Source of the DNA: Desulfomonilia bacterium
Lineage (GTDB): Bacteria > Desulfobacterota > Desulfomonilia > UBA1062
NCBI GenBank assembly: GCA_963664325.2
Contig: CAXXDQ010000007.1
Location: 416,001 to 480,000 of the forward strand
DNA length: 64,000 nucleotides
Direction: 5' to 3'
This document shows, one piece after another, positions 26,887 through 60,742 of the stretch. Within the stretch, counting starts at the first letter, position 1, and every line of letters starts with the position of its first letter. The notes beneath the pieces were generated by a model. It made no database searches. It saw only the letters and a program-made list of their open reading frames with translations, and was not told the DNA's origin. The translations under genes and the position numbers were made by a program.

Positions 26887-28474
26887 TTATCGCAGCTTAA
26901 ACCCAGTACATATTCTCCTGAACTCGGCGAAGTCCAGCTTGGAGTTGTGCCTTGGATCCCTGGGTATCCTATTCAAGATGAATATCCTGTACGGGTTTAA
27001 CTCTTTCAGCAACGTTCCAGCTTTCTCAATCAAATAATAATGCTGAGACTGAGGCAGACCCTGGCCGGGTTCCATGGCAACAAAAATTTTCCCTTCAACT
27101 TCCATTACAGCAGTAAAAGCTACACCCTCAATATCCATCAGCATCTGTTCATAGGGCAACGAATAAACATCACCTGAATCGGAATGCATGATGTTGTTGA
27201 TACGGCCTTGAAGATATATCCTGCCCGAAGGTTCAATCATACCGGCATCGCCTGTCCTGTGCCAGACTGTATCGCCGTCCATGACCTTGTTTGCCCCCCA
27301 TGCATCAATGCTTCCAAGATAAGATTTCAGGACATGAGGACCGGCCACAACAATTTCACCGACTTCACCGGGATGAACAAGATAATCGTCAATGCTTTTG
27401 CCATCTTCAATCCTGACAGCGCCATTTAATGGTTTCATAATCTTCACTCTGATCGATTGGTCAGGATAACCCGCAGCGACACCCAGTGAACTGTCGGAAT
27501 TTATAAAATCACTGATTTCAATCGAACTTATTGGCTCTGCCTCCGTACATCCGTATACGATTTCGATCCGGGTTCCTGAAAAAGCTTTTTCAAACTTTTT
27601 CGCAAGCATTTTCGAAACGGGAGCCCCTCCTGTATAAATGCCTTTTAGTGTAATCCGTTCATTCTTTTTCATCAGGTAATCGGCCAGCTTTTCATAAAAT
27701 GCTGGTGAGCCGACACTTGTATTTATTTCGCATTCTTTTATCTGTCTTACAATGGAACCGGGGTCAAATTCCGAGGGTTTTGCCGGGTTGAACTCAGGCA
27801 GAACGCTTGTTGCACCTGCACCCAGATTGCAGAATACGAAGACGGGCAATGCGGTGAGGTCGATATTACTGCTCTCAATCCCGATATGCCTGATCAAGAC
27901 ATTGAACTGCTCAGACAAAAAACCATGAGTACGGTCGGCACCTTTGGGCATTCCTGTACTGCCAGTAGTCAACGTTACCAGTCCCTCATCATCGTCGTCA
28001 ATATCTTCGGGCCCTGAGTCATTATATCCACCGGACAGTTCAGGCAGGAAAAGAACCCGGTCGAGAACTTTTACCGGTATTTTCCTGATCTCCGGAACGA
28101 TCATTAAAAGCTGCGCTTTCAGGCATCCGATAAATCCCTTCGGTAAAACAGTGGCGCATGCATTTTTCAGCCTTTCCCTGCCGGCCCACGCATCCATGAA
28201 CACAGTAACGGCACCTATATAGAAAACCGCCAGGACAATCACATATGAATTCATAACTCATGGGTGTAAAGACCACTATCCGATCACCCTTCTTAAATCC
28301 CATCTTTCTGAGACGGAAAGCCACCAGCCTGATATCGGCCATCATCTGCGAGTAAGTGAACTTTCTGTATCCTGCCCTATTGAATACACCTTTTCTCTTT
28401 TCAACTATGGCTGCCTTTTCAGGATACTTTCCTGCTGTTTCGATAAGGGTAAAGATAATATTCTTTTTGGACAT
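26887..28474 (-). CDS. AMP-binding acyl-CoA ligase / OleC-like adenylating enzyme, split by a one-base frameshift near 28250
   Basis: Joined reading PMSYE(L)YVIVLAVF; TTGSTGMPKG, YGCTEAEP, WHRTGDAG, DPRHNSK. Confidence 0.82.
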
Positions 28475-28482
28475 GGCCTTTA

Positions 28483-29577
28483 TTATCCGGTGAATGTTCC
28501 AACGACAAACCGCTTATAGAATGGCGCCTTGTCTCTTCTTGTAAGTCTTTCCGAAAGCTCCTGTTCGTATGATATTCCTATCCCGTCAGGAATCATCCTG
28601 TCGACCAGCAGGTTCCAGAAGGCAAATCTGGCGCCCCTGGCCGCTCCCTTTGTAAGATATTTCAATTCTTCTTTATGCTCTTTAACATTCATGTATTCGA
28701 ATATATCCGACAGATTATAGGCGTTGAACCTGACCGAACCATAGCTGTCAATACAGCTGTTTATGCCACCCTGATATATTTCTATCCTGTCAAGGCGCGA
28801 TTTTATGAGCTCATAATTCTCCTTTCTCAGATAATGCGGCAGGGCATGCAGGGGATAGTTGCCGGTCAAAATGCAGTTCAGATACGGATTATCGTAAATG
28901 CTGATATTCGTGAAATTGAAGTCCGTCCTTTTCTTGAATGAACCCGCGACATCCGCATCGACATATTTGAAGAACTCAGGGTCCCGCCCGATCCTTCCGA
29001 CGATAAGCCTGTTGAAAAACAGCTTGAACATGATCCTCCAGTTCAGGTTATCCCATACTTTATAATAATAGCCGCACTGCTCGGGGATGCTCTTCTTTTC
29101 AAGAAGCCTTTCTACCGCACCTTTCCCATGCATCATGGGCAGTATGAACCGCCTGAATATATGAAAGAATTTTTCAAACTTGCCAGCATGTATGATGCCT
29201 TTTTCTATCAGGCGATGGTTGTTCTCCCAGAGATTGAGGGCGAATTCGCTTAATCCGCCTTTGATCCGGTTGAAAGTCCATAATCTGTCATCGGATTTTT
29301 CCACACCGATGAAAGCAAGCATTTCATCGTATGTGAGCTTTGCAAACGCCTGTTTTCTCATTTCAATACAGGCGTTCTGAACAGGATTAAAATCAACTGC
29401 GACAACCTTTGCCGGGTCGTATACGAGCATGGAGAGGGAATTATCACCTGCAGAGCCAATTGATATGCAATTATGCCCTGCTTTGATGTCGAGCGCTTCA
29501 AGCAGGATATCCGCATCTTCCCAGCAGCTTGCATAACGTATGAAATCGAATTTCGCCCTGTTTTTAATATCCGCCAT
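28483..29577 (-). CDS. DUF3419 / BtaA-like SAM-dependent 3-amino-3-carboxypropyl transferase
   Basis: YASCWED, SIGSAGDN, VDFNPVQ, LSDIFEYM, RDKAPFY. Confidence 0.85.
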   Translation of the reverse strand: MADIKNRAKFDFIRYASCWEDADILLEALDIKAGHNCISIGSAGDNSLSMLVYDPAKVVAVDFNPVQNACIEMRKQAFAKLTYDEMLAFIGVEKSDDRLWTFNRIKGGLSEFALNLWENNHRLIEKGIIHAGKFEKFFHIFRRFILPMMHGKGAVERLLEKKSIPEQCGYYYKVWDNLNWRIMFKLFFNRLIVGRIGRDPEFFKYVDADVAGSFKKRTDFNFTNISIYDNPYLNCILTGNYPLHALPHYLRKENYELIKSRLDRIEIYQGGINSCIDSYGSVRFNAYNLSDIFEYMNVKEHKEELKYLTKGAARGARFAFWNLLVDRMIPDGIGISYEQELSERLTRRDKAPFYKRFVVGTFTG

Positions 29578-29587
29578 ATTCCAACCC

Positions 29588-32311
29588 TTATCCTGAGATG
29601 CGCTGAACGACGCCGGTGGTCCCGTTCATATGGATTTTTTCGCCATTCTCAATCTTTTTAGTAATACCCCTCAGGCCGACAATTGTAGGAATTCCCATCT
29701 CCCGGGCAACAACTGCGGAATGAGACAACACGCTTCCGCGTTCGATTATTATGCCGCTGACCGACGGGAAAAGAGGCACCCATCCGGGGTCCGTGCGTTT
29801 CGCAACCATGATCTCACCGTTCAGGTTGGCATCATTGGGAGCAAGTACGATCCTGGCCTCTGAAGTAACATCTCCGGGGGAGCATGGCACCCCCTTGAAG
29901 CTTCTGCCGCTTTCATCCTCCTCGAACTCCATGTCGTTTTCAGTAAGGATCTCGACAAAACATCTGTCCTGCATCTCGCCGAAAAAATACATGCGCTCAG
30001 GGGAATCCTTTGACTGCTGTTCTTCAAATTCGTGTTTCCTTAATGAGATTATGTCCCTTACTATGCCTTCAATTATGGAGCGGCCCTCGATAAGCTGCCT
30101 TATTTCATCTACATGTAAAAAATAGACATCCTTCCGATCATCTATTATTCCCTGTTCATTAAGGTTTGCACCTATCCGGTTGAACATGCTGCGGCATATC
30201 CCGAATATCTTGGTGCGCATGAATCTGAGTTCTTCCCGGTTCCTGATGGCCTTGCGGGCCCTGATTAGCACATAAGTAAAAAGACGCTTTTTGAGAGGAG
30301 AAAGTTTCATGAACACTTTTTCTTCAGCCCTGAACTTGATTTCCTGTTCGTTGAGCTCCATTTTATCAAGGTCAACCGCTCCCTTCTTCAGATAGTTCTT
30401 GAGCGCTGTGAATAAGAATCTCGGGTCTTCCTTGAGAGACGGCTCCTCGAGCTTGAGTTCAAACATGCACCTGAAGCCGTATTCGGAGATGTATTCCTTT
30501 ATACGGCGCCTGATTTCGGCATACCGCTGCTCCTCGGTACAAAGGATAAGCCTGATAAGCTCATCTTCTGTTTTATCCCTGAACAATGCGGCCAGTTCGG
30601 GAATACTCCTTATCCAGCTCGATATCATTATGATCTCGCGTGTCGGCTTTGTGCTTTCTATCTCACCCTGCCCGCATAAGAGGTCGTTCTGGACACTTTT
30701 GGCATCTGCTATGTCAAGACTGGCCACCATTTTCCCAAGGGCTCCGAAATAAACCATCGTATAGAAATCATTGACAATGGGGGCCTTCCACTTGTCGAGC
30801 ACGTTATCCTGGAAATAATCATAAAGCCTTAGTATTTCGAGATTATTGTATTTCTCAAATTTCTCATCCATGTAAGGCGCAGTTGCGGCATAGAAGTCAT
30901 CAATGAACTTTTTCGATATTTCATCTATTCTCTTAAAATTTAAAAGCAGCTTGAACGCCGAATAAATGAGAAGCGGGATCTCAATTGATATATTGCGCGC
31001 CTTTGAAATAGACCCCTCGGCTGAAAAGCGTGAAGCATGTCTTACTCCCATCATCCTGTCCATGAATTCGCTGTTTATATTATATCCGGGAAGCAGCTGC
31101 AGAGCCCTGTGCCAGCTGTTCAGATTGTAGTAAATCCTGCCGTCAATGTAGCAGAGAAGTGTTCTGAAAATATCTGAAAAACTGCTGATCCGCCTTTGGC
31201 TGACACCGAGCAGCCTGAAGAACTGCCGGTAAACCATCTCATAGTTTTTGCTTGCAAATGAAAATGTCAGCGGACTCGTCACGCCCGGAAAGCTTTCAAT
31301 AATGTTTGAATTATCAAGGACTGTCCTGGGTTTTGATTTGTCGATATGGCTCAATGTAGTAACAGGCCTTGACTGGAGTATGTATATCCTGCCGTCTTTT
31401 ATGCACCACTCTATATCCTGTGGAACATATCCGAAAACACCTTCTATCCTCCTGCCGAGCATGGCAAGTTCCACTATCTGTACAGAAGAAAGGGATCTTT
31501 CTTCAACAAGGTCTGCCGGGACACTGATATTTTTCGTCCCGGAACCGCGTTCGCTGTCAAATGTGATCATCCCGGTTTTTCTTGCGATCAATTCTTTCAC
31601 TATGCTGTCGTCATCGGCGACAATCCAGGAATCGGCATCGATTTCCCCGGAAACGATGCCTTCTCCTATCCCGTATGCGGAGTTGACAAGTATCTGGTCC
31701 GTGTCATTGTTTAGAGGGTTGCCTGTAAACATGACGCCTGAAATATCGCCGAAAATCATTTCCTGGATAATGGCGGCAGGCCTGACGCCAGTCAGCGGCA
31801 ATCCCTGGGATATGCGATATGTCATAGCCCTCAGGGAATATGCCGAAGCAAAGCACCTGCGGACAAATTCAAACAGGTTCTCATCCGGTTTTACATAAAG
31901 AAAACTTTCAAGCTGTCCTGCAAATGAAAACCTCTTGGAGTCTTCATCAACAGCGGAAGACCTGACTGAAAAGAATCCGGGCATATTCTTTACAAAGACC
32001 CGGGACAGACCGTCAAGAATCTCCTTTTTCTGCCTCGGGGAAAAAGCCGTAATATTGATAAGTCCGCATATTTTTTCACTCACGGGATTGATGTTTTTTT
32101 TGTTGCATCCGTTCAAAAGGCTGTCGATCTTTTTTATGCCTTCCCCCATAAACTTTTCGAAAAAGTCCGTTGTTAATGACAGCCATCGCGGAACGGGAAG
32201 CCCTGCCCTGCCCATAACCGCAAGGTTTCTCGCCTTGCCGCCTACGAGCTTTATATCGGGTACAGGACAGTCCCGACTTTCAAGATAATATATCCCCTTC
32301 ATGATATTCAC
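29588..32311 (-). CDS. PEP/pyruvate-binding dikinase-type phosphotransferase (rifampin phosphotransferase architecture)
   Basis: VGGKA, VRSSAVDED, FAGQ, DIEW, LQSRPVT; C-terminal TDPGW...LSHSAVVARE His domain. Confidence 0.88.
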   Translation of the reverse strand: MNIMKGIYYLESRDCPVPDIKLVGGKARNLAVMGRAGLPVPRWLSLTTDFFEKFMGEGIKKIDSLLNGCNKKNINPVSEKICGLINITAFSPRQKKEILDGLSRVFVKNMPGFFSVRSSAVDEDSKRFSFAGQLESFLYVKPDENLFEFVRRCFASAYSLRAMTYRISQGLPLTGVRPAAIIQEMIFGDISGVMFTGNPLNNDTDQILVNSAYGIGEGIVSGEIDADSWIVADDDSIVKELIARKTGMITFDSERGSGTKNISVPADLVEERSLSSVQIVELAMLGRRIEGVFGYVPQDIEWCIKDGRIYILQSRPVTTLSHIDKSKPRTVLDNSNIIESFPGVTSPLTFSFASKNYEMVYRQFFRLLGVSQRRISSFSDIFRTLLCYIDGRIYYNLNSWHRALQLLPGYNINSEFMDRMMGVRHASRFSAEGSISKARNISIEIPLLIYSAFKLLLNFKRIDEISKKFIDDFYAATAPYMDEKFEKYNNLEILRLYDYFQDNVLDKWKAPIVNDFYTMVYFGALGKMVASLDIADAKSVQNDLLCGQGEIESTKPTREIIMISSWIRSIPELAALFRDKTEDELIRLILCTEEQRYAEIRRRIKEYISEYGFRCMFELKLEEPSLKEDPRFLFTALKNYLKKGAVDLDKMELNEQEIKFRAEEKVFMKLSPLKKRLFTYVLIRARKAIRNREELRFMRTKIFGICRSMFNRIGANLNEQGIIDDRKDVYFLHVDEIRQLIEGRSIIEGIVRDIISLRKHEFEEQQSKDSPERMYFFGEMQDRCFVEILTENDMEFEEDESGRSFKGVPCSPGDVTSEARIVLAPNDANLNGEIMVAKRTDPGWVPLFPSVSGIIIERGSVLSHSAVVAREMGIPTIVGLRGITKKIENGEKIHMNGTTGVVQRISG

Positions 32312-33231
32312 CTTTGACAGATAATATAAAAGGCTATGGCCGAATTAAGATAAAAGCCAATGGTATAAAGGGCACCCGCCCCTTCCACTATTTTTGATCT
32401 TTTCAGCACTGGTTTCTTAAGGAACATCAGGTCTGCGGCAAGAAACAACATATACAGCCCGGCCTGAACTCCAGATGATATGATACTTGCACCTGCTGAG
32501 GCGAATACGAAAACCAGCGCACAGGTTGAAAAAACTGCAGTGAGCTGGTTTACCAGAACCGTTGCCGGCCGGCCCCAGAATTTGGTATAGGAGTCTGCAA
32601 ATTCATGCTCCTTTTCTTCCGGCCATGTCTTTCTTGAAATTTCATAGGTGATAAAAGAACCCAGGCTTGCTGTAAAAAATGCCGCAGCGGACAATATATC
32701 GATATTGGACGGCTTTCTCTGGAAAAACCCGAGAAGCAGGACTATCGGGACAAGTATCTGATGGCTCAAAAGGTATATGCCCATGTGGCGGTTTAAAAAT
32801 CCGGGCACAAAAAATTCCTTGAGCATCAAAAATGTATAGAAAAAGATTATTGCCCAGATAACAAGGGTGTATACGCCGAGATAAAAACCCACTGCAATTT
32901 CCAGAGCGATAATAATTAAAAGCAGCTTCCTGAGATCGGACAGCGTTATGTCGCCTCGGCTCAACATTCTTTCAGGATGTGCAATAATGTCTTTTTTATA
33001 ATCTTTATGCTCGTCAAAAATCCTCAAATGAAATGTTATGAGAAAAACAAGGATAGAACCAAGTATTATCTCTGAAATATGCTGCGGTGATTCAGGTGAA
33101 AAAAGCCCGCCCAGAAAATATGATGAGCAGTAAAGGGCGGCTGCAAATACAAGAGCGGGTGCAACCGGGAACCTCTCTTTTGAATAAAGGGCATACATTT
33201 TTATACCGGACGGTTTTGCGTTATCCGCCAT
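32308..33231 (-). CDS. UbiA prenyltransferase-superfamily membrane protein
   Basis: Multiple TM segments; Asp-rich LRIFDEHKDYKKDIIAHPER..SRG and YEISRK...DSY. Confidence 0.75.
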   Translation of the reverse strand: MADNAKPSGIKMYALYSKERFPVAPALVFAAALYCSSYFLGGLFSPESPQHISEIILGSILVFLITFHLRIFDEHKDYKKDIIAHPERMLSRGDITLSDLRKLLLIIIALEIAVGFYLGVYTLVIWAIIFFYTFLMLKEFFVPGFLNRHMGIYLLSHQILVPIVLLLGFFQRKPSNIDILSAAAFFTASLGSFITYEISRKTWPEEKEHEFADSYTKFWGRPATVLVNQLTAVFSTCALVFVFASAGASIISSGVQAGLYMLFLAADLMFLKKPVLKRSKIVEGAGALYTIGFYLNSAIAFYIICQR

Positions 33232-33243
33232 GTTATCCTCCGC

Positions 33244-34317: not shown

Positions 34318-34335
34318 GCCATCTATCCCCTAAAG

Positions 34336-35688: not shown

Positions 35689-35711
35689 ATCGGTCTCTCC
35701 CGTGCCTGGAT

Positions 35712-38453
35712 CTATACTATACCGAACGTTTCGGAACCCTCGGTAATCAAAGTCCTCAGGTTGGCGTATACCCTGTCCATATAAGGAAACTTAAGGACGT
35801 TGTGCGCCAGCAGGTACAGGTTGAACCTGATGACTGCAAGCTTTATCGCGTTGAGATAAAGCACTTTTTCAAATATTTTTTTATCGAAAGTCCTTTCTGA
35901 AAATCCTTCGAGGTTTTTCATATACTGGGATATGTAACGGCTGAAACTGCTTCTTGTCGCATTGCCGGGCAGACAGTAAACAAGAAACTCAACGGCATCG
36001 AGCTGCGGGTTCTGCCAGCACGGTACCTCCCAGTCGTATAAAACCAGCCTCGACCTTTTAGGTTCAGGCTTCCTGAGGCAGATATTCCTGACATTGAAGT
36101 CATTATGTGTCAGTGTCATTGGAAAAGACTCCATCTCGTTTAAAATCCCCGGGATATTGTCAAGAAATACCTGATAAATCTTTTCAATGGGTTTCGTCAG
36201 TAGTTCCGGGAATCGTCTGGCGTTATACGACGTCAGCTCGGACAGCAGGTCCGATGCGGGAACAAGATTCTTTTCGGTATAGTTATTGACGTTTATCTCT
36301 TCGGGAATATCTTCAAAGCGCTCCATATATACAGAATGCATCCCGGCAAGGTCGAACAATACTGCCTTTATGCTTTCGGCATCCCAGAGCGACGGCCTGT
36401 TGACCGTATCCAGATGGGTTGAAGACGACAGGTCCTCCATCAGCACAGCATAGGCGTTCTTTGAGGCATCTGCATAAGAGCCGTATATTTCAGGGCAGTA
36501 TGAAAGCATATCCTTTCCGGCAAGTCTGTAAAAAGCAATTTCCCTCTCATGGCTTCCGTCAAACCCGAATACATTCACCTGGGACTCGAACAGGCCCGGC
36601 AGCCTGTCTTCACCTGAAAGCCTGGCAAGGCCTATGCCGACATCTATTATTTCCGTGTCAGAGGTTTTGAGCTTGAGAATTGCAGGCAGGTCAGTGATTC
36701 CTGATTTTGTTTCAATTTTCAGATCAAATTTATAAAGCCCGTGGAATTTCTTCGCTCTGGATTTGACGGTCTTTGTAATGATGCTTGAATCTGATGATAT
36801 CCTGCCTTCTTCGAAGGATACGACCTTTGTATCCTTGTCGAGCAGCATCGAGTTGAAGAAATCAAGCGTGATGTCAGCCCTTGAAAGATACTTTGCCGGC
36901 CTGTTTCTCCCATACCTGTCATGGGCGCTGGCGAATTCATTCGATGTCATTGCAGAACCCGTTGAGAGATCAAGCGACAGGCATGCTGCGGCAATGATTT
37001 CCGCAAGCCTGAACGATTTGCCCGGTCCGTAGCAGTTCATGAGTTCAAGGCATTCCCTCTGCGAGGGCAGCTTTGTACCGCCTCCTACGGTGCCGATAAC
37101 GAGCGAAGGAAGATATGCTGTAAACAGGATGCCGTTGTCCTGCTCTCGAACCTTGAATATCCCCACCGAAGACTCATGAACGCATGCGATATCCTGCCCG
37201 GTTGCAGTAAAAATACCAGCTATGGGATTGGCAAAATTGATGTTCATGCCGACTATGCCGACCCTCTGAGCGGAAAACTCCCCTTCATGATAATGCCGTG
37301 CAAAATCCTTGTAGTTGGTCCTGAGCTTGTCTTTGAAAAGTTTTCCCGGAACAAAGCATGATGCCTGCACGCTTATTCCTCTGCCTTTTATAAAGCTGCC
37401 GTAGCTGACCTTTTTGTCCGCGGACATGTTCCCGTCTATATTGTATGAATCAAACCCGATCGAGTCATTATCCAATATCTGTTCGACAATCCATTCGCAT
37501 GCGACCCATGTGCATGATGTCGTCATATTCTGTCCTGCCGCATCGCCCGTCGTATACGTAAAATTCAGATGCATGGCCGCACCGTAGACTTCCGGTGTTA
37601 TATGTTTGATCCTGGCAATGGAAGATACGCTCTCGGCCTTTGCAGTTATGTTCCTGATGTTACCCTGTACCCAGCGCTGAAGATTCCTGGCGCTCTGCAT
37701 GTCTTTGCAGAAAAATACAGGGACCCGCTGCATTTTCTGTTCGATAACCTGGGTCTCTATGCCGCCGGCAAGATTGCACACCCTTGCCCCCCTTGATATG
37801 GAACTCACAAGCGCACCTTCCGTGGTCGCTATGGGAACCGGGATATACCCGTTTGCATATACGCCGTTGATGAGAATAGGCCCCGCAATGCCGACAGGAA
37901 TCTGAACCGCGCCGATATAATTCTCGATGTTCCCGGCAAGGGATTCGGCCTTCAGTATAGTTTTGGAGATCGAATCCAGCATTGAGCCGCTCATCGTGCG
38001 CGCCCATCCCTGCCGGGTCTTGACCGATGCATCGGAATAATGCTCACTGCCCGAAAATTTGGGTATCATGTCCTCCCTGTACATCTTTGTAATGCTTTTT
38101 ACCGGCCTTTCCCACAGTTGCTGGAAGGCCTCCCTGAACTGTCTTTCGTCTCTGGCTCCGGAAGTGCATACAGCCACTTGTGACTTTCCGGTTGTATAAT
38201 TGTAATTGCAGTGCAGTACAGTCATCCCTTCAATGACCTTCCGTGTGCCGACGGAATCAAAATACAGCCTTGAGACAATGTCGCCCGGTCTTATTTCAAT
38301 CCGGGAATCAACACTTATACAAAGTCCGTTTTCCCAGAAATTTGAAACGAAACCATTACAAACCGTTTCATTGACCAGAAAGAGAACCTTAGGCTCTCTG
38401 CCCTCATGATAATACTTGCGGCCTTTTATTTTCATCCTTCCCATGTTTTTCAA
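35712..38453 (-). CDS. HMG-CoA reductase (class I-like) fused to a C-terminal choline/aminoglycoside-kinase-like domain and an extra N-terminal domain
   Basis: IENYIG, PIATTEGAL, TGDAAGQNM, GNMSADKK, TGQDIA, GTVGGGT; C-terminal THNDFNVRN and LYDWE. Confidence 0.85.
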   Translation of the reverse strand: MKNMGRMKIKGRKYYHEGREPKVLFLVNETVCNGFVSNFWENGLCISVDSRIEIRPGDIVSRLYFDSVGTRKVIEGMTVLHCNYNYTTGKSQVAVCTSGARDERQFREAFQQLWERPVKSITKMYREDMIPKFSGSEHYSDASVKTRQGWARTMSGSMLDSISKTILKAESLAGNIENYIGAVQIPVGIAGPILINGVYANGYIPVPIATTEGALVSSISRGARVCNLAGGIETQVIEQKMQRVPVFFCKDMQSARNLQRWVQGNIRNITAKAESVSSIARIKHITPEVYGAAMHLNFTYTTGDAAGQNMTTSCTWVACEWIVEQILDNDSIGFDSYNIDGNMSADKKVSYGSFIKGRGISVQASCFVPGKLFKDKLRTNYKDFARHYHEGEFSAQRVGIVGMNINFANPIAGIFTATGQDIACVHESSVGIFKVREQDNGILFTAYLPSLVIGTVGGGTKLPSQRECLELMNCYGPGKSFRLAEIIAAACLSLDLSTGSAMTSNEFASAHDRYGRNRPAKYLSRADITLDFFNSMLLDKDTKVVSFEEGRISSDSSIITKTVKSRAKKFHGLYKFDLKIETKSGITDLPAILKLKTSDTEIIDVGIGLARLSGEDRLPGLFESQVNVFGFDGSHEREIAFYRLAGKDMLSYCPEIYGSYADASKNAYAVLMEDLSSSTHLDTVNRPSLWDAESIKAVLFDLAGMHSVYMERFEDIPEEINVNNYTEKNLVPASDLLSELTSYNARRFPELLTKPIEKIYQVFLDNIPGILNEMESFPMTLTHNDFNVRNICLRKPEPKRSRLVLYDWEVPCWQNPQLDAVEFLVYCLPGNATRSSFSRYISQYMKNLEGFSERTFDKKIFEKVLYLNAIKLAVIRFNLYLLAHNVLKFPYMDRVYANLRTLITEGSETFGIV

Positions 38454-38475
38454 CCCACCAAAAAAAATATTTCAA

Positions 38476-40788
38476 TTATAAATCAGCGGCTTTCCCCATC
38501 ACGCTTTCCCCGGTAGCCTTTTCACCCGAAAAGAGAATCAGCAGCGACGGCAGCAGCAGTATATCGCAAAGCAATGCAACACTCAGTGTAAGACTTGTGA
38601 GTATGCCGAAATATACCACGGATGTGACATGGCCGAATATCATTATAAGGTATCCGAATACCAGTATAATATTGGAAATGAACATCGGGGCTCCTTTGAA
38701 AAGCAGCGTATCCCTGACCGCATCGCGCACGCCTGCACCCGCTTTTCTAAGAAATTTGAAATAATAGAGGTAATGAATAGTATTATCGACAGAGAGCCCT
38801 ATCGTGATTGCCGCGACAGTGACGGTTGCAACATCAAGGTTTATGCCGGTAAAGCCCATGAAACCGAGCGTGAAGATTATGGGTATGATGTTGGGGATTA
38901 TTATTATGAGCAGGTAATACCATGAACGGAGCAGTATCGTGGTGCTTGCAAATATAAGTATGAAGGCCAGTATAAAGCTCTCGACCTGGGTTCTGGCTAT
39001 GTACTCTATAAGCTTTATGTAAAGCGGGATGTAGCCTCCGAAGGCCACGTCCACATTCCCGCTGAAAGCTTCATCTATCATCTTTTCAGTTTTGTCGATT
39101 ACCGTCCTGAACGAACGGCTGCTCGTCATGGGTATGCGGATCGTCAGTCTTGCCTCGGTATATCCGTTGTCAACGAAATACCAGAGGTCATTTTTGCCGT
39201 TCATTTCATAGAGCAGCAGTTCCTGTGCAACAGCATTCCTGGTATCAGGGATTTTGTAAGAAGACTCTCTGTTGTCTGTAAGAACACGGTTTAGCAGCTT
39301 TACCACATCGGCAATTGATGTCGATTTGTTGTAGGAAGGATCTCTTTCAATCCTGTCCTGAAGGAGACTCAGGCCTTTCAGGAAACCGGGGTCCTTTATC
39401 GTCCCGCTTTTAGGAATCAACCTCACCTCAAGCGGGACATAAAAACCGTAATCCTTCTCGAAGAACTCCGAGTCCTTTCTGATACCGTTTGATTCCTTGA
39501 GCATGCCGATTGTGTAGGTATCCACTTTGATCCTTGCAATGCCGGATACGCCCACAATCAGGATCAGAAAAAAGAATGCAACAACAGCCTTGTTGTGCCT
39601 TTGAATAAAGACATTTACCTTTATCAGCCGGGGCCTGAAAAACGTTTCGTAGAATTTATTTTCAGGCTCGACCGGGGGTCCCTGCCGCTTGTTTCTTTTT
39701 TCCATGAGAACAAGGACAAACGTACCGACAATTATTGAGACGACATATTCAAGGATGACGGCAAGGGCTGCGAATATCCCGAAATACTTGAGTATCTTCA
39801 TCGGGCTTGTGCAGAAGGAGAAAAAACCCACCGCGGTAGTAAATGAAGTGAAGAAACACGGCACAAGCACATGGCTTATAGTCTTCTTTATATCGCGCTC
39901 TGAGGGCGGCGTATCGTAATAATGGGAATATATGAATATTATGTCTTCAAGGCACATGATCAGAACGAGAGAGGGAAGTATTGCGGACACCATGTTGAGC
40001 TTCTGCTTGAAGAGGCCCAGGACGCCCAGTATGATCACCGAGATGAGGACTATGGTAGCCGTTGTTGCAATCATTATGGATTTTTTTCTGTAGAAGATGA
40101 GAATCGAAAACAGCAGTATGATGTAGGTCAGGCCTGTAAAGAGCGACGTGTCGTTGAGCGTCAGCCGGTTAAGCTCGTCATATATTACGCCCGTACCCAT
40201 TAGCTTGAAATCAATACCTTTAAGATTCTCTTTCACGAATCCGATCAGTTCGGGCCTCTTTGCATCCATTTCATCCGTTACGACCGGCTCGATAACAATG
40301 ATAGTCGCGGAAGAATCCTTGTTGAGCAGCAGTTTCCTCATCTGCGGGTTCGAATTAAGTCTTTTTTTGAAGTTATCAAGGTTGAATGATCCGTCGGGTT
40401 TTGATTCTACTATATCCTCAACAATGAGCATGTCACCTTTGCTGTCAAGGTATGGGGCATCGGTAATGGAAAGGATTCGTTTGACCAGCTTGTGTTTGCC
40501 GAGTTCGTTCGAAATATCATAGATCCTGCCGGCAAATGCCTTATCATAAATTCCCTTTTCAGGTTTGACCCAGACAAGTATCACCTCATCGTTGCCGTAA
40601 ATTCGTTTGAATTGATTGTAATCGATTAAAACCTTGTCGTTTTTCAGAAACCAGACTTCAAGCGAGTTCTCGATGCCGAGGTTCTTGAGGAAATATGCCG
40701 AAAAGGCGGTTGCGAAAAGAACAAGAACTAAGAGCAGCCACCTTTTTTCAACGAGTATCTCTGCAAGCCGATCATTTACCTTTGCCAT
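38476..40788 (-). CDS. MMPL / RND-family transporter
   Basis: Two repeats of 1+5 TM with periplasmic loops; TSFTTAVGF, IGLSVDNTIH. Confidence 0.88.
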   Translation of the reverse strand: MAKVNDRLAEILVEKRWLLLVLVLFATAFSAYFLKNLGIENSLEVWFLKNDKVLIDYNQFKRIYGNDEVILVWVKPEKGIYDKAFAGRIYDISNELGKHKLVKRILSITDAPYLDSKGDMLIVEDIVESKPDGSFNLDNFKKRLNSNPQMRKLLLNKDSSATIIVIEPVVTDEMDAKRPELIGFVKENLKGIDFKLMGTGVIYDELNRLTLNDTSLFTGLTYIILLFSILIFYRKKSIMIATTATIVLISVIILGVLGLFKQKLNMVSAILPSLVLIMCLEDIIFIYSHYYDTPPSERDIKKTISHVLVPCFFTSFTTAVGFFSFCTSPMKILKYFGIFAALAVILEYVVSIIVGTFVLVLMEKRNKRQGPPVEPENKFYETFFRPRLIKVNVFIQRHNKAVVAFFFLILIVGVSGIARIKVDTYTIGMLKESNGIRKDSEFFEKDYGFYVPLEVRLIPKSGTIKDPGFLKGLSLLQDRIERDPSYNKSTSIADVVKLLNRVLTDNRESSYKIPDTRNAVAQELLLYEMNGKNDLWYFVDNGYTEARLTIRIPMTSSRSFRTVIDKTEKMIDEAFSGNVDVAFGGYIPLYIKLIEYIARTQVESFILAFILIFASTTILLRSWYYLLIIIIPNIIPIIFTLGFMGFTGINLDVATVTVAAITIGLSVDNTIHYLYYFKFLRKAGAGVRDAVRDTLLFKGAPMFISNIILVFGYLIMIFGHVTSVVYFGILTSLTLSVALLCDILLLPSLLILFSGEKATGESVMGKAADL

Positions 40789-40910
40789 TCACTGTGCCCT
40801 TAATATAATTATTATATAAAAAAGAACTATAGATTTGATTTTTAGTTTCCCGATAACTTAATAATAATTTATTTTGATATTTTAAATAAAAATCGTGACG
40901 GAGGTATTAT

Positions 40911-41702
40911 TTGATGGGGGTTTTTATAAAATTCACAATGATACTCACTGCATATTGTCTTGCACCAATAGCTGCATTTAACGCATATTCTGCGCAGCCT
41001 GTGCCCTATGATATTGCTAAGAAATCCGATGAAGCCCTTAACAGGGCCAGGGATGTAAAATCTGAAATATCCATGCAGATATTTGACAGGAACGGCAGCA
41101 GGAGGGACAGGCGCATTACTTCCTATGCAAAGAAGTATCCGAACGGAGACAGGAAAACATTGCTTGTTTTTGATTACCCCGCCGATGTCAAGGACAGCGC
41201 TTTTCTTATCTGGGACATTAAAGGCCAGGACGACCGGCAGTGGCTTTATCTGCCGGCCCTTGAAAAAATCCGCCAGATAGCGCCCGGTGACAAAGGGGGC
41301 AGCTTCATGGGTTCCGACTTTTCATATTATGACATGGGAGGCCAGGATGTTGACGACTTCAATTACAAGCTCGTCAAGGAAGAAACTGCCGATGGCTCTT
41401 TATGTTATGTGCTTGAATCATACCCGAAAAAAGCCATCCCCTACGGCAGGATCACGACATGGATAAGGAAGGACAACTTTCTGCCGGTCAGGACTGATAT
41501 TTATGATAAAAAAGGAGAGTTCATGAAGCAGTGCCTGTCAGGGGCCGTAAAGGTGATTAACAATATCCCGACGCCGACCCATATTGTGATGAAGCAGGTG
41601 AAGGATCCCTCGTACACGGTCATTGACCTCGTAAATATTATTTATGATTCCGGTCTCGCCGACGGTATTTTCACGCAGAGATACATGCAGAGGGGAAAGT
41701 AA
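40911..41702 (+). CDS. Outer-membrane lipoprotein-sorting (LolA-like) protein
   Basis: PADVKDSAFL, QWLYLPAL..IRQI, SFMGSDFSYYD. Confidence 0.85.
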   Translation: MMGVFIKFTMILTAYCLAPIAAFNAYSAQPVPYDIAKKSDEALNRARDVKSEISMQIFDRNGSRRDRRITSYAKKYPNGDRKTLLVFDYPADVKDSAFLIWDIKGQDDRQWLYLPALEKIRQIAPGDKGGSFMGSDFSYYDMGGQDVDDFNYKLVKEETADGSLCYVLESYPKKAIPYGRITTWIRKDNFLPVRTDIYDKKGEFMKQCLSGAVKVINNIPTPTHIVMKQVKDPSYTVIDLVNIIYDSGLADGIFTQRYMQRGK

Positions 41703-41706
41703 GGCG

Positions 41707-43197
41707 ATGCGGAGCCTGTTTGCCGCCCTGCTTTCACTCCTTATATTGGGCAGTCCCCTGCTGGGCCTTGATTTTCAGACCGGCAGAATCCAAAATTCCG
41801 TTGGCGGCTCCCTTGAAGGTCTGGGTACGGCACCTCTTCACAATAATTCTCCCAGGGAAGACTTGACTGGTGTTTTCAGGGTGCAGACAAAATCCTCTTT
41901 CGGGGATGTCAGCGACATCAAGATAAATTTAAGGGGAGAATATGACGGAACAGTGCTTTACCCGCATGACCACAAGGTTTTTCTCGGCTATACCAATATT
42001 TATCAGGACAGAAATCCTTTTTTGAGCGCCGATGAGGCATACTTTGATTTCTTTACGTCAAAGGCAGATTTCAGGCTGGGTATACAGAAATTCGCATGGG
42101 GGAGGCTCGACGAACTGAGCCCTGTGGACATGCTGAATACGGATTCCATGACAAACCCTTTTATCGAGGATGAAAACACCAGAAAGATAGGGGCCCCGTC
42201 GGCCAGGGCAAATATCTATTCGGATTTAGTCAACCTCGAACTGGACTGGATCCCCCGCTGGGTTCCCTACCGGCTTCCCATGTCTTATGAAAGATGGTTC
42301 CCTACCGTCCTGATTGCACCTGAAAACATTGTTATACAGGGATATGGTCCCCTTTTACCTGCCAATATATCCATCCCTGTAAAGGCCGAGTACCAGGACA
42401 TCGACATGCCGGCCTGCACATTCGAAAACTCCGAGATCGGTGTAAAGATTTCAAAGACCGTGGGAAAGTGGGAAGTTTCGGCCATGTATTTCAGGGGATA
42501 CGACACGATGCCGGTTTTTGACATGCCAACAAAGCTGTCGGTTTCGATAGACCCGCAAACGATTACGCCCAGCCTCTCTTTGGACACAGAACTAGAACCC
42601 AGGGTTTTCACAATCGATATGTTTGCCTTTGACTTCTCGACCACGGCCGGAGATTTCACGTTCAGGGGTGATGCGGCTTTTTTCAAGGACAGACGCTATA
42701 TCAGGGAAATCGAGGGCATGATAAACGACTATTTCGACAAAGACATGCTGCAATCAATTATCAGTGAGGTTTTAAAAGATCCTTTCAACCCGCATACCTT
42801 TACGTTCAACCCGCCCGTAATAGAAAAAAAGGATTCTGCAAAATACGGCCTCGGGTTTGATTATATCAAAGGGGACACGACGGTCACAGGCCAGATCATC
42901 CAGGAATATATCTTCAATTACGATGAAAAGCTGCTCTTCAACAAGAACGGCATAGACACCATGCTGACGCTCTCAATAAAGCGCATGCTGTTCAACAGCA
43001 GATTCGAGGCGGCCATTTACGGTTCCTACGGTATTGAGTTCAGGCAGTTTCTCGTCAAACCCTCGGCCTCTTATGATATTACGGACAACCTCAAGCTGAC
43101 TCTTGCAGCTCTTGTATTCGGCGGGGAAAAAGACTCCATTCTCGGACAGTATTCAGACAATGACGAAATCTTTTTAAAGGTAAAATACAGCTATTGA
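41707..43197 (+). CDS. Putative outer-membrane beta-barrel protein (DUF1302-like)
   Basis: Signal peptide MRSLFAALL; EAYFDF, LGIQKFAWG, C-terminal aromatic KVKYSY. Confidence 0.7.
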   Translation: MRSLFAALLSLLILGSPLLGLDFQTGRIQNSVGGSLEGLGTAPLHNNSPREDLTGVFRVQTKSSFGDVSDIKINLRGEYDGTVLYPHDHKVFLGYTNIYQDRNPFLSADEAYFDFFTSKADFRLGIQKFAWGRLDELSPVDMLNTDSMTNPFIEDENTRKIGAPSARANIYSDLVNLELDWIPRWVPYRLPMSYERWFPTVLIAPENIVIQGYGPLLPANISIPVKAEYQDIDMPACTFENSEIGVKISKTVGKWEVSAMYFRGYDTMPVFDMPTKLSVSIDPQTITPSLSLDTELEPRVFTIDMFAFDFSTTAGDFTFRGDAAFFKDRRYIREIEGMINDYFDKDMLQSIISEVLKDPFNPHTFTFNPPVIEKKDSAKYGLGFDYIKGDTTVTGQIIQEYIFNYDEKLLFNKNGIDTMLTLSIKRMLFNSRFEAAIYGSYGIEFRQFLVKPSASYDITDNLKLTLAALVFGGEKDSILGQYSDNDEIFLKVKYSY

Positions 43198-60728: not shown

Positions 60729-60742
60729 GGCGAAGTGATTTT

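Follow-up and report, generated by a model that had tools for sequence, protein, structure and literature searches.

The ten genes described here most likely turn fatty acids into phosphorylated fatty alcohols and these into a probably ether-linked envelope lipid, which is then exported. That the genes together make and export a lipid derived from fatty alcohols is held with good confidence. The preliminary description had the locus activate, reduce, phosphorylate, lipidate, cap and export an amphiphile, possibly an ether or betaine-like lipid, and this chain of events is supported, fitting all points tested.

Organization of the locus

The locus lies within a window of 64,000 nucleotides, the whole stretch of Desulfomonilia bacterium DNA that was analysed. 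ORF calls and Pfam and NCBIfam scans gave the following tightly packed features:

26887–28474, minus strand: AMP-binding ligase (ANL family; acyl-CoA/acyl-AMP), called as two ORFs, 26887–28254 and an N-terminal piece at 28040–28474
28483–29577, minus strand: DUF3419/BtaA-family protein (Pfam PF11899, 215 bits)
29588–32311, minus strand: RPH-architecture dikinase (Pfam PPDK_N and PEP-utilizers)
32308–33231, minus strand: divergent UbiA-superfamily membrane transferase (fold; Pfam UbiA below cut-off at 28.1 bits)
33244–34317, minus strand: tandem-GNAT acyltransferase ("unk357"), 357 aa (by fold)
34336–35688, minus strand: B12-binding radical SAM enzyme (Pfam B12-binding and Radical_SAM)
35712–38453, minus strand: three-domain protein, FcrA-type reductase with APH/EcKL kinase (Pfam; alignments to PDB HMGRs)
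38476–40788, minus strand: HAE3/MMPL-type RND transporter (Pfam MMPL, 53.7 bits)
40789–40910: divergent intergenic spacer, 122 bp, 78.7% A+T
40911–41702, plus strand: predicted LolA-like periplasmic lipid carrier (Pfam LolA_like, 199 bits)
41644–43197, plus strand: DUF1302 outer-membrane barrel-type protein (Pfam DUF1302, 36.3 bits; cut-off 23.2)

As first described, eight genes are co-directional and closely spaced, occupying 26887–40788 with intergenic gaps of −4 to 23 bp, and the LolA-like and DUF1302 genes diverge from them across the spacer, whose earlier estimate of about 120 AT-rich base pairs was accurate. The best sigma-70-like match in the 17 kb scanned, a match to consensus only (TTGCCA-16-TATAAT, 11/12, plus strand, 40782–40809), overlaps this spacer.

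The ligase gene falls into two frames within the window, with one extra base at 28247. Two public runs, X1 and X2, both of one sample, each have one contig (depth about 9–10) that spans this position and is one base shorter there. Since both reading frames are open across 28247, the ligase becomes a single ORF of 528 codons when the extra base is left out. Pfam AMP-binding spans both pieces, and the orthologues in loci L005 and L009 are unbroken, each with 530 aa. The frameshift is probably an assembly error. Among NCBIfam models, the ligase matches PRK09274 best ("fatty acid CoA ligase family"), at 288 bits, under the cut-off of 478.

The reductase and its fused kinase

The central protein of the locus has an N-terminal region of ~130 aa (about 38064–38453), a reductase domain (Pfam HMG-CoA_red, residues 144–516; 36906–38024) and a kinase domain (EcKL/APH, residues 636–849; 35907–36548). 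It had been described as an HMG-CoA reductase homolog. The homology stands, with 45–50% identity to an archaeal class I HMGR (6hr7) over the aligned part, as read from the alignment; judged by its residues, however, the domain is of the FcrA type, a fatty acyl-CoA reductase, rather than of the type that reduces HMG-CoA.

FcrA, found through wax-ester synthesis and known from Natronomonas pharaonis and "Ca. Promineifilum breve", reduces fatty acyl-CoAs of at least C14 to alcohols with NADPH and does not act on HMG-CoA (PMC11948995, 2025). According to that paper, it retains the catalytic Glu559, Lys691, Asp767 and His866 of the class I fold, while Ser684 has become Glu, the lysine that binds the HMG carboxylate a small residue and Leu862 a bulky one; an extra N-terminal domain or ACP is present, and host genomes have no mevalonate pathway. 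The window protein resembles it in all these respects: E212, K347, D421 and H511 are kept, D340, G391 and F507 provide the three pocket changes that define FcrA, an N-terminal domain is present, and the host has no mevalonate pathway. The position of Ser684 is acidic in 115/115 fused homologs (Asp in 17), Lys at position 735 is found in 0/115, and F507 is invariant (33/33). With this assignment, the substrates would be long-chain fatty acyl-CoAs.

There are also differences, and two of them count against the envelope-lipid explanation. The window protein has Asp rather than Glu at the Ser684 equivalent and Phe rather than Trp at that of Leu862, and the kinase-fused proteins form a separate sub-type, with Phe at the Leu862 position and Asn at the His752 position; in stand-alone FcrA-like genes from the same phylum, Trp and His are found there instead. 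The C-terminal APH/EcKL kinase also sets the protein apart, as the word "kinase" is absent from the main text of PMC11948995 and the enzymes assayed there apparently have no such domain; so does an operon with a dikinase, UbiA-like, GNAT and DUF3419 proteins and exporters, and with no adjoining wax synthase. The kinase has H783, D785, N790, W808 and E809 as invariant residues, with D807 nearly so, and conserves the motifs H-x-D-x4-N and D-W-E. A DWE motif and an APH fold are also features of the ACAD10 alkylglycerol kinase, which phosphorylates an ether-lipid alcohol, 1-O-alkylglycerol (preprint PMC13596139); a profile comparison ties the window kinase only weakly to ACAD11 (E 0.0023).

Could the locus be a non-canonical mevalonate-type isoprenoid pathway, in which an HMGR and two non-homologous kinases feed a prenyltransferase? 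The order of reductase, kinase, second phosphoryl transfer and UbiA mimics HMGR-MVK-PMK-prenyltransferase, and the identity to the archaeal enzyme is in keeping with it. The pocket changes and the inactivity of published FcrA on HMG-CoA (PMC11948995) nevertheless make it most improbable, as does the genomic context. Just one HMGR-family gene is encoded in the genome, a search of it for HMG-CoA synthase found none, and one for mevalonate kinase gave nothing above cut-off; IspH and Dxr are present, the MEP pathway being the one in use, and the cluster holds no decarboxylase. The earlier view that this is no ordinary mevalonate operon is thus borne out. A protein in which ligase, ACP, FcrA and kinase form one chain (P0062) implies a free-acid substrate, which also counts against a mevalonate-type route.

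It is improbable, too, that the locus only supplies fatty alcohol for wax esters or for classical AGPS/PlsC-type ether lipids, with the other genes loosely associated. FcrA was discovered in the former context, and those who described it propose that certain FcrA enzymes feed ether-lipid synthesis via PlsC-like or AGPS genes (PMC11948995). However, a WS/DGAT search of the genome gave no match (weak evidence, since the control search matched 0/14 control genomes), and the tight operon, recurrent synteny and fusions favor one dedicated pathway. Known routes to ether lipids from fatty alcohol, the eukaryotic FAR1-GNPAT-AGPS route and that of myxobacterial ElbD, likewise take the alcohol from a fatty acyl reductase; unlike them, the window cluster combines a pair of phosphoryl-transfer enzymes with a UbiA-type transferase, and it has no AGPS or ElbD-type protein.

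Candidate enzymes of lipid assembly

The dikinase, called RPH-like from the start, is so by sequence and layout: its best PDB matches, 5hv1/5fbs (E 5e-84; titled "phosphoenolpyruvate synthase", which we take to be Listeria rifampin phosphotransferase), share its three parts, an ATP-grasp domain, a divergent middle domain and a swivelling His domain. Pfam places PPDK_N at 21–328 and PEP-utilizers at 832–900. The swivel His is kept (that of GSVLSHSAV aligns to that of GGLMTHGAV). The layout, His and best PDB matches are common to RPH and to the ATP-dependent condensing enzymes PigC and RedH; unlike these, the window protein falls far below the cut-offs that NCBIfam sets for Rph, PigC and RedH, and its middle (substrate) domain, residues about 325–557, does not align to 5hv1/5fbs.

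The UbiA-like protein misses the Pfam cut-off (34.2 bits), and its earlier name is justified by the predicted fold. The model (pLDDT 90) finds archaeal DGGGP synthase first in Foldseek (6m31/7bpu, E 6e-8, TM 0.66/0.71), and 6m31 is the sole PDB match of the family profile A3 (E 1.2e-5); by profile and model, this is its closest relative among solved structures. DGGGP synthase forms an ether bond, and its second Asp-rich motif helps to bind Mg-diphosphate. The window protein has an invariant D73, D77 and D81, and in place of the second motif it carries E197..R200-K201; this replacement by R-K counts against the envelope-lipid explanation. All UbiA-family lipid donors known to us are either allylic diphosphates or PRPP, and the use of a saturated alkyl diphosphate would have no precedent, which speaks against the ether route.

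The 357-aa protein gave no match in the Pfam scan; 4/10 of its relatives match Acetyltransf_1, a set common to 22/30 matches in the Atlas (score 0.98). Its model (mean pLDDT 73) has tandem-GNAT N-acetyltransferases as best PDB matches (Foldseek E 1e-11 to 1e-8), in agreement with the earlier GNAT-like label. The DUF3419 protein covers positions 5–382 of the 385 in PF11899, and its 3379 homologs at E<=1e-10 carry the labels "BtaA family" or "SAM-diacylglycerol 3-amino-3-carboxypropyl transferase"; it is predicted from sequence to be a SAM-dependent head-group transferase. It thereby resembles BtaA of the BtaA/BtaB betaine-lipid (DGTS) pathway, but the ten genes include no BtaB-type N-methyltransferase, the partner instead being the tandem GNAT. 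The radical SAM protein has the peptide CPFNCNFC, presumably the CxxxCxxC cluster motif; no NCBIfam model reaches its cut-off (best PhpK-type, 89 bits, and HpnJ, 87 bits), and tblastn found the gene in 3/80 metagenome loci. It might serve an accessory tailoring step.

Recurrence of the gene set and its candidate head-group modules

The FcrA-kinase fusion protein, used as query, retrieved 80 metagenome loci, 38 of them at least 12 kb long. The dikinase (37 loci) and the UbiA-like gene (29) are its two most frequent partners, followed by the ligase (27) and the tandem GNAT (22). The dikinase is present in 28/38 long loci and is the next same-strand gene in 27/63 cases with a called downstream neighbor. 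The partner genes co-occur far beyond chance, and the set recurs across many bacterial phyla in variant forms and rearranged order, as the earlier mention of similar neighborhoods in other bacteria had suggested. On the other side of the ledger for the envelope-lipid explanation, 6/38 long loci have no partner gene, and a fused FcrA-kinase on a Streptomyces plasmid has none within 12 kb.

The head-group genes vary. In sister clusters, a CarS-like protein and a CDP-alcohol transferase (sometimes with a PS decarboxylase) stand in place of DUF3419, which supports a capping or head-group role for the latter. This F4 module (CDP-OH_P_transf plus CarS-like) occurs in 27/80 loci and DUF3419 in 11/80, never together, so that they are read as alternative modules; the two kinds of locus are interleaved on the FcrA-kinase tree. 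The swap also suggests an ether-lipid logic of archaeal style. The likeness to ether-phospholipid assembly in archaea (DGGGP synthase, CarS, archaetidylserine synthase/decarboxylase) lies in the UbiA-like protein and in these sister-cluster genes; the differences are that the chains would come from a fatty acyl-CoA reductase instead of an isoprenoid pathway, that the second Asp-rich motif has not been kept, that the window variant carries DUF3419 instead of the CDP route, and that no GGGPS/PcrB homolog was found in the 95.6%-complete genome. This last result, with the absence of a glycerol-phosphate enzyme from the cluster, also counts against the envelope-lipid explanation.

The same two absences would suit a glycerol-free, two-chain lipoamino-acid phospholipid, whose anchor would be the alkyl phosphate made by the FcrA-kinase itself. 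DUF3419 would add homoserine (in sister clusters, the CarS-like protein and CDP-alcohol transferase would add serine), the tandem GNAT would N-acylate the amine, and a further group would be added or activated by the dikinase and UbiA-like protein. A CarS-like gene directly follows the reductase-kinase gene, with no UbiA-like gene, in L123, L151, L154 and L156, and other organisms have the GNAT-like domain in one chain with DUF3419 (P0359) or the ligase (P0373), as well as with the dikinase (P0382); the first two fusions fit an amino-acid head that is then N-acylated. Characterized BtaA, however, acts on the hydroxyl of diacylglycerol and CarS on a di-ether phosphatidate analogue, and the scheme has no proper role for the dikinase and UbiA-like protein, the commonest partners. 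We regard it as doubtful, though worth weighing.

A proposed pathway

For the ether-linked lipid, the steps might run as follows. The ligase would activate a long-chain fatty acid (1), and the FcrA-type domain would use NADPH to convert the thioester into a fatty alcohol (2), a chemistry published for the family rather than for the window protein. The fused kinase would phosphorylate the alcohol, as the fusion suggests (3), and the dikinase would add a second phosphoryl group or activate a partner hydroxyl (4). The DGGGP-synthase-like UbiA protein may then form the ether bond, joining the activated alkyl to a glycerol-phosphate-type or other hydroxyl acceptor (5). With SAM as donor, DUF3419 would give the lipid a homoserine-type head group, 3-amino-3-carboxypropyl (6), apparently in place of the CarS-like/CDP-alcohol-transferase/PS-decarboxylase module. 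The tandem GNAT, to go by its fold and fusions, would N-acylate the head-group amine with acyl-CoA made by the ligase (7), the radical SAM enzyme might tailor a chain, perhaps by methylation (8), and the RND pump, LolA-like carrier and DUF1302 barrel would bring the lipid to the outer membrane (9).

The nine steps as written are tentative, with somewhat less than an even chance of being right throughout. Taken as a whole, the best explanation is an operon that makes an envelope lipid from fatty alcohols and exports it, at somewhat short of an even chance. Five loci with a PlsC-type acyltransferase (L093, L123, L151, L152, L156) have no UbiA-like gene, which means that the pathway need not include UbiA and that the product of the dikinase may be the acceptor rather than the donor. 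A full-text literature search found no description of the pathway, in line with the earlier remark that no product is defined.

Putative export genes

The RND transporter has a sterol-sensing domain besides MMPL, and its scores against TIGR00921 HAE3 (144 bits) and HpnN (64 bits) fall short of the cut-offs. HAE3-type exporters with DUF1302 and DUF1329/LolA-like partners (HpnN; AmeABCD) have the same set of pump, carrier and barrel, although the window pump, unlike them, stays under both curated cut-offs. Modules of HAE3 with DUF1302/DUF1329 reportedly include a monoterpene efflux system (PMC6394551). Such efflux would suit a secreted or surface secondary metabolite, such as an alkylated or prenylated small molecule, instead of a membrane lipid, with the RPH/PigC-type enzyme as ATP-dependent condensing or activating enzyme. 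The dikinase does match the PigC and RedH ligase models at E about 1e-100, far below their cut-offs, the full-length fusion is patchy (5/401 sampled genomes of the phylum), and in one locus, L120, PKS-type genes adjoin the UbiA-like gene. Such a product is nonetheless unlikely, given the phospholipid head-group enzymes of sister clusters (CDP-alcohol transferase, CarS-like, PS decarboxylase, PlsC) and a LolA-like carrier and barrel that suggest outer-membrane delivery. The LolA-like gene also adjoins the MMPL gene in L005, L006, L008, L009, L104, L113 and L116, and the DUF1302 gene is conserved in L005 and L009.

Gene content and integrity of the cluster

The cluster is real and conserved. The gene set claimed in the preliminary description was confirmed at its coordinates by the list of open reading frames (ORFs) and by Pfam and NCBIfam scans, and consists of eight co-directional genes on the minus strand and two divergent genes on the plus strand:

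26887-28474, minus: ligase
28483-29577, minus: DUF3419 protein
29588-32311, minus: dikinase with PPDK_N and PEP-utilizers domains
32308-33231, minus: UbiA-like protein
33244-34317, minus: GNAT-like protein of 357 aa, no Pfam match
next gene, minus: B12 radical SAM protein
35712-38453, minus: fusion protein of an N-terminal domain, HMG-CoA_red and an EcKL/APH kinase
next gene, minus: MMPL/HAE3 RND transporter
across the divergent spacer, plus: LolA_like protein and DUF1302 protein

Intergenic distances among the eight minus-strand genes range from -4 to 23 bp. The spacer between them and the LolA_like and DUF1302 genes is 122 bp long with 78.7% A+T, and it overlaps the top sigma-70-like match within the 17 kb scanned, which is a consensus match only. 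The cluster is flanked by isoamylase and GlnRS genes on one side and by a split S15 peptidase gene and a DUF362 gene on the other; these neighbors look unrelated to it. (A Gln/Glu-type class I tRNA synthetase of 705 aa with a C-terminal tRNA_bind domain is encoded at 24262-26379.)

In the window, the ligase gene is broken into two reading frames. This frameshift is probably an assembly error, since read-derived contigs from two public sequencing runs, X1 and X2, lack the base at 28247 and are otherwise identical across the site, and since the gene without the extra base is a single ORF of 528 codons, compared with 530 aa in two relatives (loci L005 and L009). Both runs come from one sample, possibly the window's own source, with one contig per run at a depth of about 9-10; run X3 covered the ligase gene at 27900-28031 only, and run X4 did not cover it. 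Two further genes are split into neighboring ORFs, encoding an S15 X-Pro dipeptidyl-peptidase (43353-43829/43855-44982) and a second AMP-binding enzyme (48372-49037/49096-49887). Given the one-base error in the ligase gene, these may be assembly indels as well.

A predicted fatty acyl-CoA reductase

What does the HMG-CoA reductase (HMGR)-like domain reduce? According to PMC11948995, FcrA, a class I HMGR homolog of 'Ca. Promineifilum breve', converts fatty acyl-CoA to the alcohol in an NADPH-dependent manner, does not reduce HMG-CoA and is not inhibited by 10 uM simvastatin. As described there, FcrA retains the catalytic Glu559, Lys691, Asp767 and His866; Ser684 is changed to Glu, the HMG-binding lysine (printed Lys795) to a small residue, and Leu862 to a bulky one (Trp in N. 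pharaonis). The protein carries either an extra beta-rich N-terminal domain, called the lipid-carrier ('Lad') domain, or an ACP (PMC11948995). The same text states that the mevalonate pathway is absent from most FcrA host genomes, and that fcrA often serves pathways other than wax esters and may supply ether-lipid synthesis (PMC11948995).

In alignments to human and archaeal HMGR structures, the window protein has E212, K347, D421 and H511 at the catalytic sites. At the sites of the HMG pocket it has D340 (Ser684), G391 (the lysine printed as Lys795, which we take to be Lys735) and F507 (Leu862). Asp occupies the Ser684 site where published FcrA has Glu, both being acidic. Conservation was followed in 115 fused homologs, these being the proteins of at least 780 aa out of 121, less a database copy of the window protein (P0012) and five shorter ones. 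The catalytic Glu, Lys, Asp and His are retained in 115, 114, 115 and 112 of the 115, respectively; 98 proteins carry Glu and 17 carry Asp at the Ser684 site, and the Lys735 site is Gly in 51, Ala in 44, Ser in 12, another residue in 8 and Lys in none. F507 is invariant in all 33 sequences aligned. Eleven more HMGR-like loci from the window's phylum never have Lys at the Lys735 site, and ten have an acidic residue at the Ser684 site (locus L174 retains Ser). By these residues the window reductase is of the FcrA type, a predicted fatty acyl-CoA reductase, which assigns one enzyme of the cluster to a known family.

At the two sites that are Phe and Asn in the kinase-fused forms, six of the seven stand-alone HMGR-like genes of the same phylum encode Trp and His, and one (L176) encodes Phe and Met. 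Three stand-alone genes in the window's family (L170, L173 and L175) combine the FcrA signature with a Trp in place of Leu862, so predicted FcrA-type enzymes without a kinase occur in this lineage too.

The fusion protein also bears an N-terminal extension of about 130 aa, and one relative, P0062, carries an ACP. A link of this domain to c-di-GMP is a possible alternative to a 'Lad' lipid-carrier role. Its identification as PilZ was dropped, since Pfam PilZ matches just one of the 33 homologs. (A GGDEF gene adjoins the cluster in L097-L100, four loci that are closely related.)

That the locus is not an ordinary mevalonate operon, as proposed earlier, agrees with the rest of the source genome (4.31 Mb in 9 contigs, 95.6% complete), which was checked for mevalonate versus MEP genes. 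Its one HMGR-family match is the cluster gene itself, no HMG-CoA synthase C-domain was found in the 95.6% complete assembly, and the mevalonate-kinase model gave only sub-threshold GHMP-kinase matches (68 and 27 bits; cut-off 163). IspH (279 bits) and Dxr are present. With the equivalents of Ser684, Lys735 and Leu862 all altered and no HMG-CoA synthase, a class I HMG-CoA reductase of the mevalonate pathway is very unlikely. A search of the source genome for WS/DGAT was blank, and its positive control gave no match anywhere either.

The fused kinase and the dikinase

Pfam EcKL and APH each match 32 of 33 members of the fusion family, and Choline_kinase matches 7 of 33. In the alignment of these 33 sequences, H783-x-D785-x4-N790 and W808-E809 are invariant and D807 nearly so; we conclude that the fused kinase domain is predicted to be catalytically competent. 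Its family profile weakly reaches the kinase domain of ACAD11 (E 0.0023) and the PsiK kinase (E 0.0039), and the domain alone had no sequence match in the PDB. ACAD10-type kinases of the APH fold with a DWE motif phosphorylate 1-O-alkylglycerol, according to a 2025-26 preprint (PMC13596139), which sets a precedent for this fold working on lipid alcohols.

The dikinase had been called RPH-like, and this holds for its architecture: its best PDB matches are 5hv1 and 5fbs (E 5e-84), with the ATP-grasp and His-swivel parts aligned and the swivel His retained in a three-domain protein. These entries are presumably the Listeria rifampin phosphotransferase. An identity as rifampin phosphotransferase proper is not supported, since the middle domain (residues ~325-557) fails to align with either entry and the score with the NCBIfam Rph model NF041857 is 345 bits (cut-off 999). 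The PigC and RedH models are below their cut-offs too, and one 'PEP synthase' model is just missed (826 against 883 bits).

The UbiA-like and GNAT-like proteins

The label UbiA-like is upheld by the fold, with a sequence score below the Pfam cut-off. The window protein scores 28.1 bits against the UbiA cut-off of 34.2, and 8 of 18 family members match. The family profile finds a single PDB entry, the DGGGP synthase 6m31 (E 1.2e-5), and in the alignment to it the first Asp-rich motif is retained (D73, D77, D81) and the second is replaced by E197..R200-K201. An AlphaFold model (pLDDT 90, pTM 0.87) is almost wholly helical; in Foldseek its top matches are 6m31 and 7bpu (E 6e-8, TM 0.66-0.71), followed by the A. 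pernix and A. fulgidus UbiA homologs, UBIAD1 and a membrane PRTase.

The GNAT-like label also stands, since a model of the protein (mean pLDDT 73) matches a double GNAT fold and PF00583 matches 4 of 10 relatives. The Foldseek matches (4zm6, 5kf1, 2wpw, 7q3a and 1ozp; E 1e-11 to 8e-8, TMq 0.5-0.6) are tandem-GNAT N-acetyltransferases of amines, among them glucosamine N-acetyltransferase, the clavulanate tandem GNAT, MshD and Eis. FemX-type enzymes rank lower. By sequence the profile had no match in the PDB. A word-index search gave the 10 relatives; a full profile search widened this to 3437 representatives at E<=0.001, of which 119 reach E<=1e-30.

Compared with their counterparts in the two closest relatives (L005 and L009), most cluster proteins of the window show 71-87% identity, against only 58-59% for the UbiA-like protein and 47% for the GNAT-like protein. 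Closer GNAT-like proteins, with 87%, 72% and 71% identity, occur in other metagenomes. This two-gene piece (32308-34317) may have been swapped between lineages or may be fast-evolving, for instance as a specificity cassette.

Distribution and gene fusions

That these genes co-occur outside the window was borne out by recurrent partner genes in 80 metagenome loci and by the 'uncultured Bacteriovoracaceae' MAGs. When the radical SAM gene was used as a probe, other cluster genes were present in only 4 of the 79 genome loci fetched (L005, L006, L008 and L009): two Bacteriovoracaceae MAGs have the full set in identical order, a Spirochaetota MAG has part of it on a short contig, and a Deltaproteobacteria MAG has it rearranged. 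Having been selected by the feature itself, the four loci were left out of the partner counts. (In a Spirochaetota MAG locus, L007:10001-16543, the B12 radical SAM gene has a copy with 64% identity that stands apart from the other cluster genes; next to it lie a sulfatase-family gene and a gene whose 1723-aa product matches no Pfam model.)

The counts are accordingly restricted to the 80 metagenome loci, many of them short, that were fetched with the fusion-protein alignment, and rest on ORF clustering except for the radical SAM gene (tblastn). F4 denotes a CDP-alcohol phosphatidyltransferase plus a CarS-like protein.

Partner genes of the fusion gene among 80 metagenome loci
Dikinase: 37
UbiA-like: 29
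Ligase: 27
F4: 27
GNAT-like: 22
MMPL: 11
DUF3419: 11
LolA-like: 3
Radical SAM relatives: 3

Among the 38 loci of at least 12 kb, 28 have the dikinase and 6 have no partner gene. A downstream neighbor of the fusion gene was called in 63 cases (85 sources in all), and in 27 of them it is a same-strand dikinase gene. The genes run most often in the order [LolA-like, unknown, MMPL], UbiA-like, FcrA-kinase, dikinase, GNAT-like, ligase, F4. The UbiA-like gene is evidently not obligatory, being absent from all five loci with a PlsC gene, a small number.

The cluster is widespread: a metagenome scan gave at least 583 confirmed stretches, and the full-length fusion proteins recorded number more than 115 distinct sequences. 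Named species with the fusion protein are Pseudoalteromonas denitrificans, Paenibacillus agilis, Marinicrinis sediminis and Pseudobacteriovorax antillogorgiicola. Within the window's phylum its distribution is patchy, 16 of the 401 genomes sampled having an HMGR-like match and only 5 of these (the source genome included) a full-length fusion. In a plasmid collection, 40 records had an HMGR-like match, and the only full-length fusion was on a plasmid of Streptomyces sp. NBC_01435. This strain was rejected as a model host, since neither a dikinase nor a UbiA-like gene lies within 12 kb of the fusion gene there.

Cluster proteins are also found fused to one another. Blastp against the window proteins identified DUF3419 + GNAT-like (P0359), GNAT-like + ligase (P0373) and dikinase + GNAT-like (P0382) fusions; P0062 combines ligase, ACP, FcrA and kinase, and L009 has the GNAT-like and UbiA-like genes joined in a single ORF of 674 aa. 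Three other apparent fusions, UbiA-dikinase (L150), MMPL-FcrA (L102) and ligase-DUF3419 (L106), were set aside as ORF-calling artefacts, since the family HMMs gave no confirmation.

Probable alternative head-group modules

The two parts of F4 are either fused (~400 aa) or encoded by separate genes. A phosphatidylserine decarboxylase joins F4 in three loci, and other loci gain a PlsC acyltransferase, a methyltransferase or a fatty acid desaturase. Among the 80 metagenome loci, 27 have F4 and 11 DUF3419, and none has both; with five other sources included, the numbers are 27 and 15, again with none having both. In a midpoint-rooted FastTree of 58 fusion proteins, read for topology alone, the DUF3419 loci fall in at least four places among the F4 clades. 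We read F4 and DUF3419 as probable interchangeable means of attaching an amino-acid-type head group to one lipid anchor.

The window's DUF3419 protein, a candidate BtaA-type enzyme (SAM:diacylglycerol 3-amino-3-carboxypropyl transferase), has a full-length Pfam domain match, and a sequence search of the PDB gave no solved structure for it. The ten cluster genes include no methyltransferase gene that could be a BtaB-type partner. The one 'CarS-like' match in the source genome was rejected as an ordinary tandem cdsA adjoining dxr. (Two tandem cdsA paralogs, CTP_transf_1, lie immediately beside dxr at G000:C4:111044-114397, locus L164.)

A candidate pathway

The fusions and the synteny argue that the cluster enzymes would all serve one pathway. 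The earlier interpretation of the locus as a lipid biosynthesis and export system is supported. The reduction of acyl-CoA to fatty alcohol is the sole step backed by published biochemistry of the enzyme family; the other steps we infer. In the proposed scheme, the FcrA-type domain would reduce acyl-CoA to a fatty alcohol, which the fused kinase would phosphorylate, and the dikinase would carry out a second phosphoryl transfer. The DGGGPS-like UbiA protein would then transfer the alkyl group, and the head group would come from DUF3419 here and from CarS/CDP-alcohol transferase in other loci. The tandem GNAT may N-acylate this head group, the radical SAM enzyme may tailor a chain, and the RND pump, LolA-like carrier and DUF1302 barrel would export the lipid. 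(The MMPL domain scores 53.7 bits against a Pfam cut-off of 20.5; the HAE3 and HpnN models of NCBIfam are below their cut-offs.)

The weakest link of the mechanism is the alkyl-diphosphate donor, for which no precedent is known to us; in addition, the second Asp motif is changed, and some variants lack UbiA. A diphosphate-making dikinase is chemically conceivable, since PPDK forms a P-O-P bond in transferring the gamma-phosphate to phosphate. Searches of the full-text literature found no description of the cluster, no natural fatty alkyl diphosphate pathway and no fatty alcohol kinase. Figure 4B and the supplementary figures of PMC11948995 may show the kinase fusion.

The pathway as a whole is probably a variant of fatty-alcohol or ether-lipid biosynthesis, possibly a wholly new route. 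Its most far-reaching reading, which we consider rather unlikely, would be a third, phosphorylation-driven ether-lipid route: fatty acid would be converted to the alcohol and by two phosphorylations to a fatty alkyl diphosphate, attached by the DGGGP-synthase-like enzyme and finished by the CarS-like/CDP-alcohol transferase or, here, by the BtaA-like protein and N-acylation. If true, this would be an archaeal-type assembly line working on fatty chains and a possible source of the non-isoprenoid alkyl ether lipids of many bacteria and sediments. Such lipids serve as sediment biomarkers whose sources are unclear, and to our knowledge many bacteria form them without any known enzyme (PlsAR, Ger, ElbD, AGPS).

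Why would such a pathway matter? The cluster couples a reductase of a characterized fatty acyl-CoA-reducing type to enzymes resembling the archaeal ether-phospholipid machinery, and this coupling and its wide occurrence make it a concrete, testable candidate. The pathway would assign a function to the FcrA-kinase fusion family, to the large tandem-GNAT family (3437 representatives, E<=0.001) and to part of the DUF3419 family. The alkyl-diphosphate step, if true, would add non-allylic donors to the known chemistry of the UbiA family and would be relevant to the 'lipid divide' between bacteria and archaea.

Other genes in the window

A polyphosphate cluster at 50285-56316 comprises PPK1, a CHAD protein, a metallophosphoesterase/HD protein with Ppx-GppA domain III, and Ppx/GppA. 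An NrpR-type regulator with NRD1_2 domains (273 bits) is encoded at 14189-15199, here in a bacterial genome; NrpR is best known from methanogens. At 59199-63012, two neighboring radical SAM genes, of which one encodes a SPASM domain, adjoin a gene for a 509-aa protein with a weak S24-peptidase match, and the three may form a peptide-maturation set.
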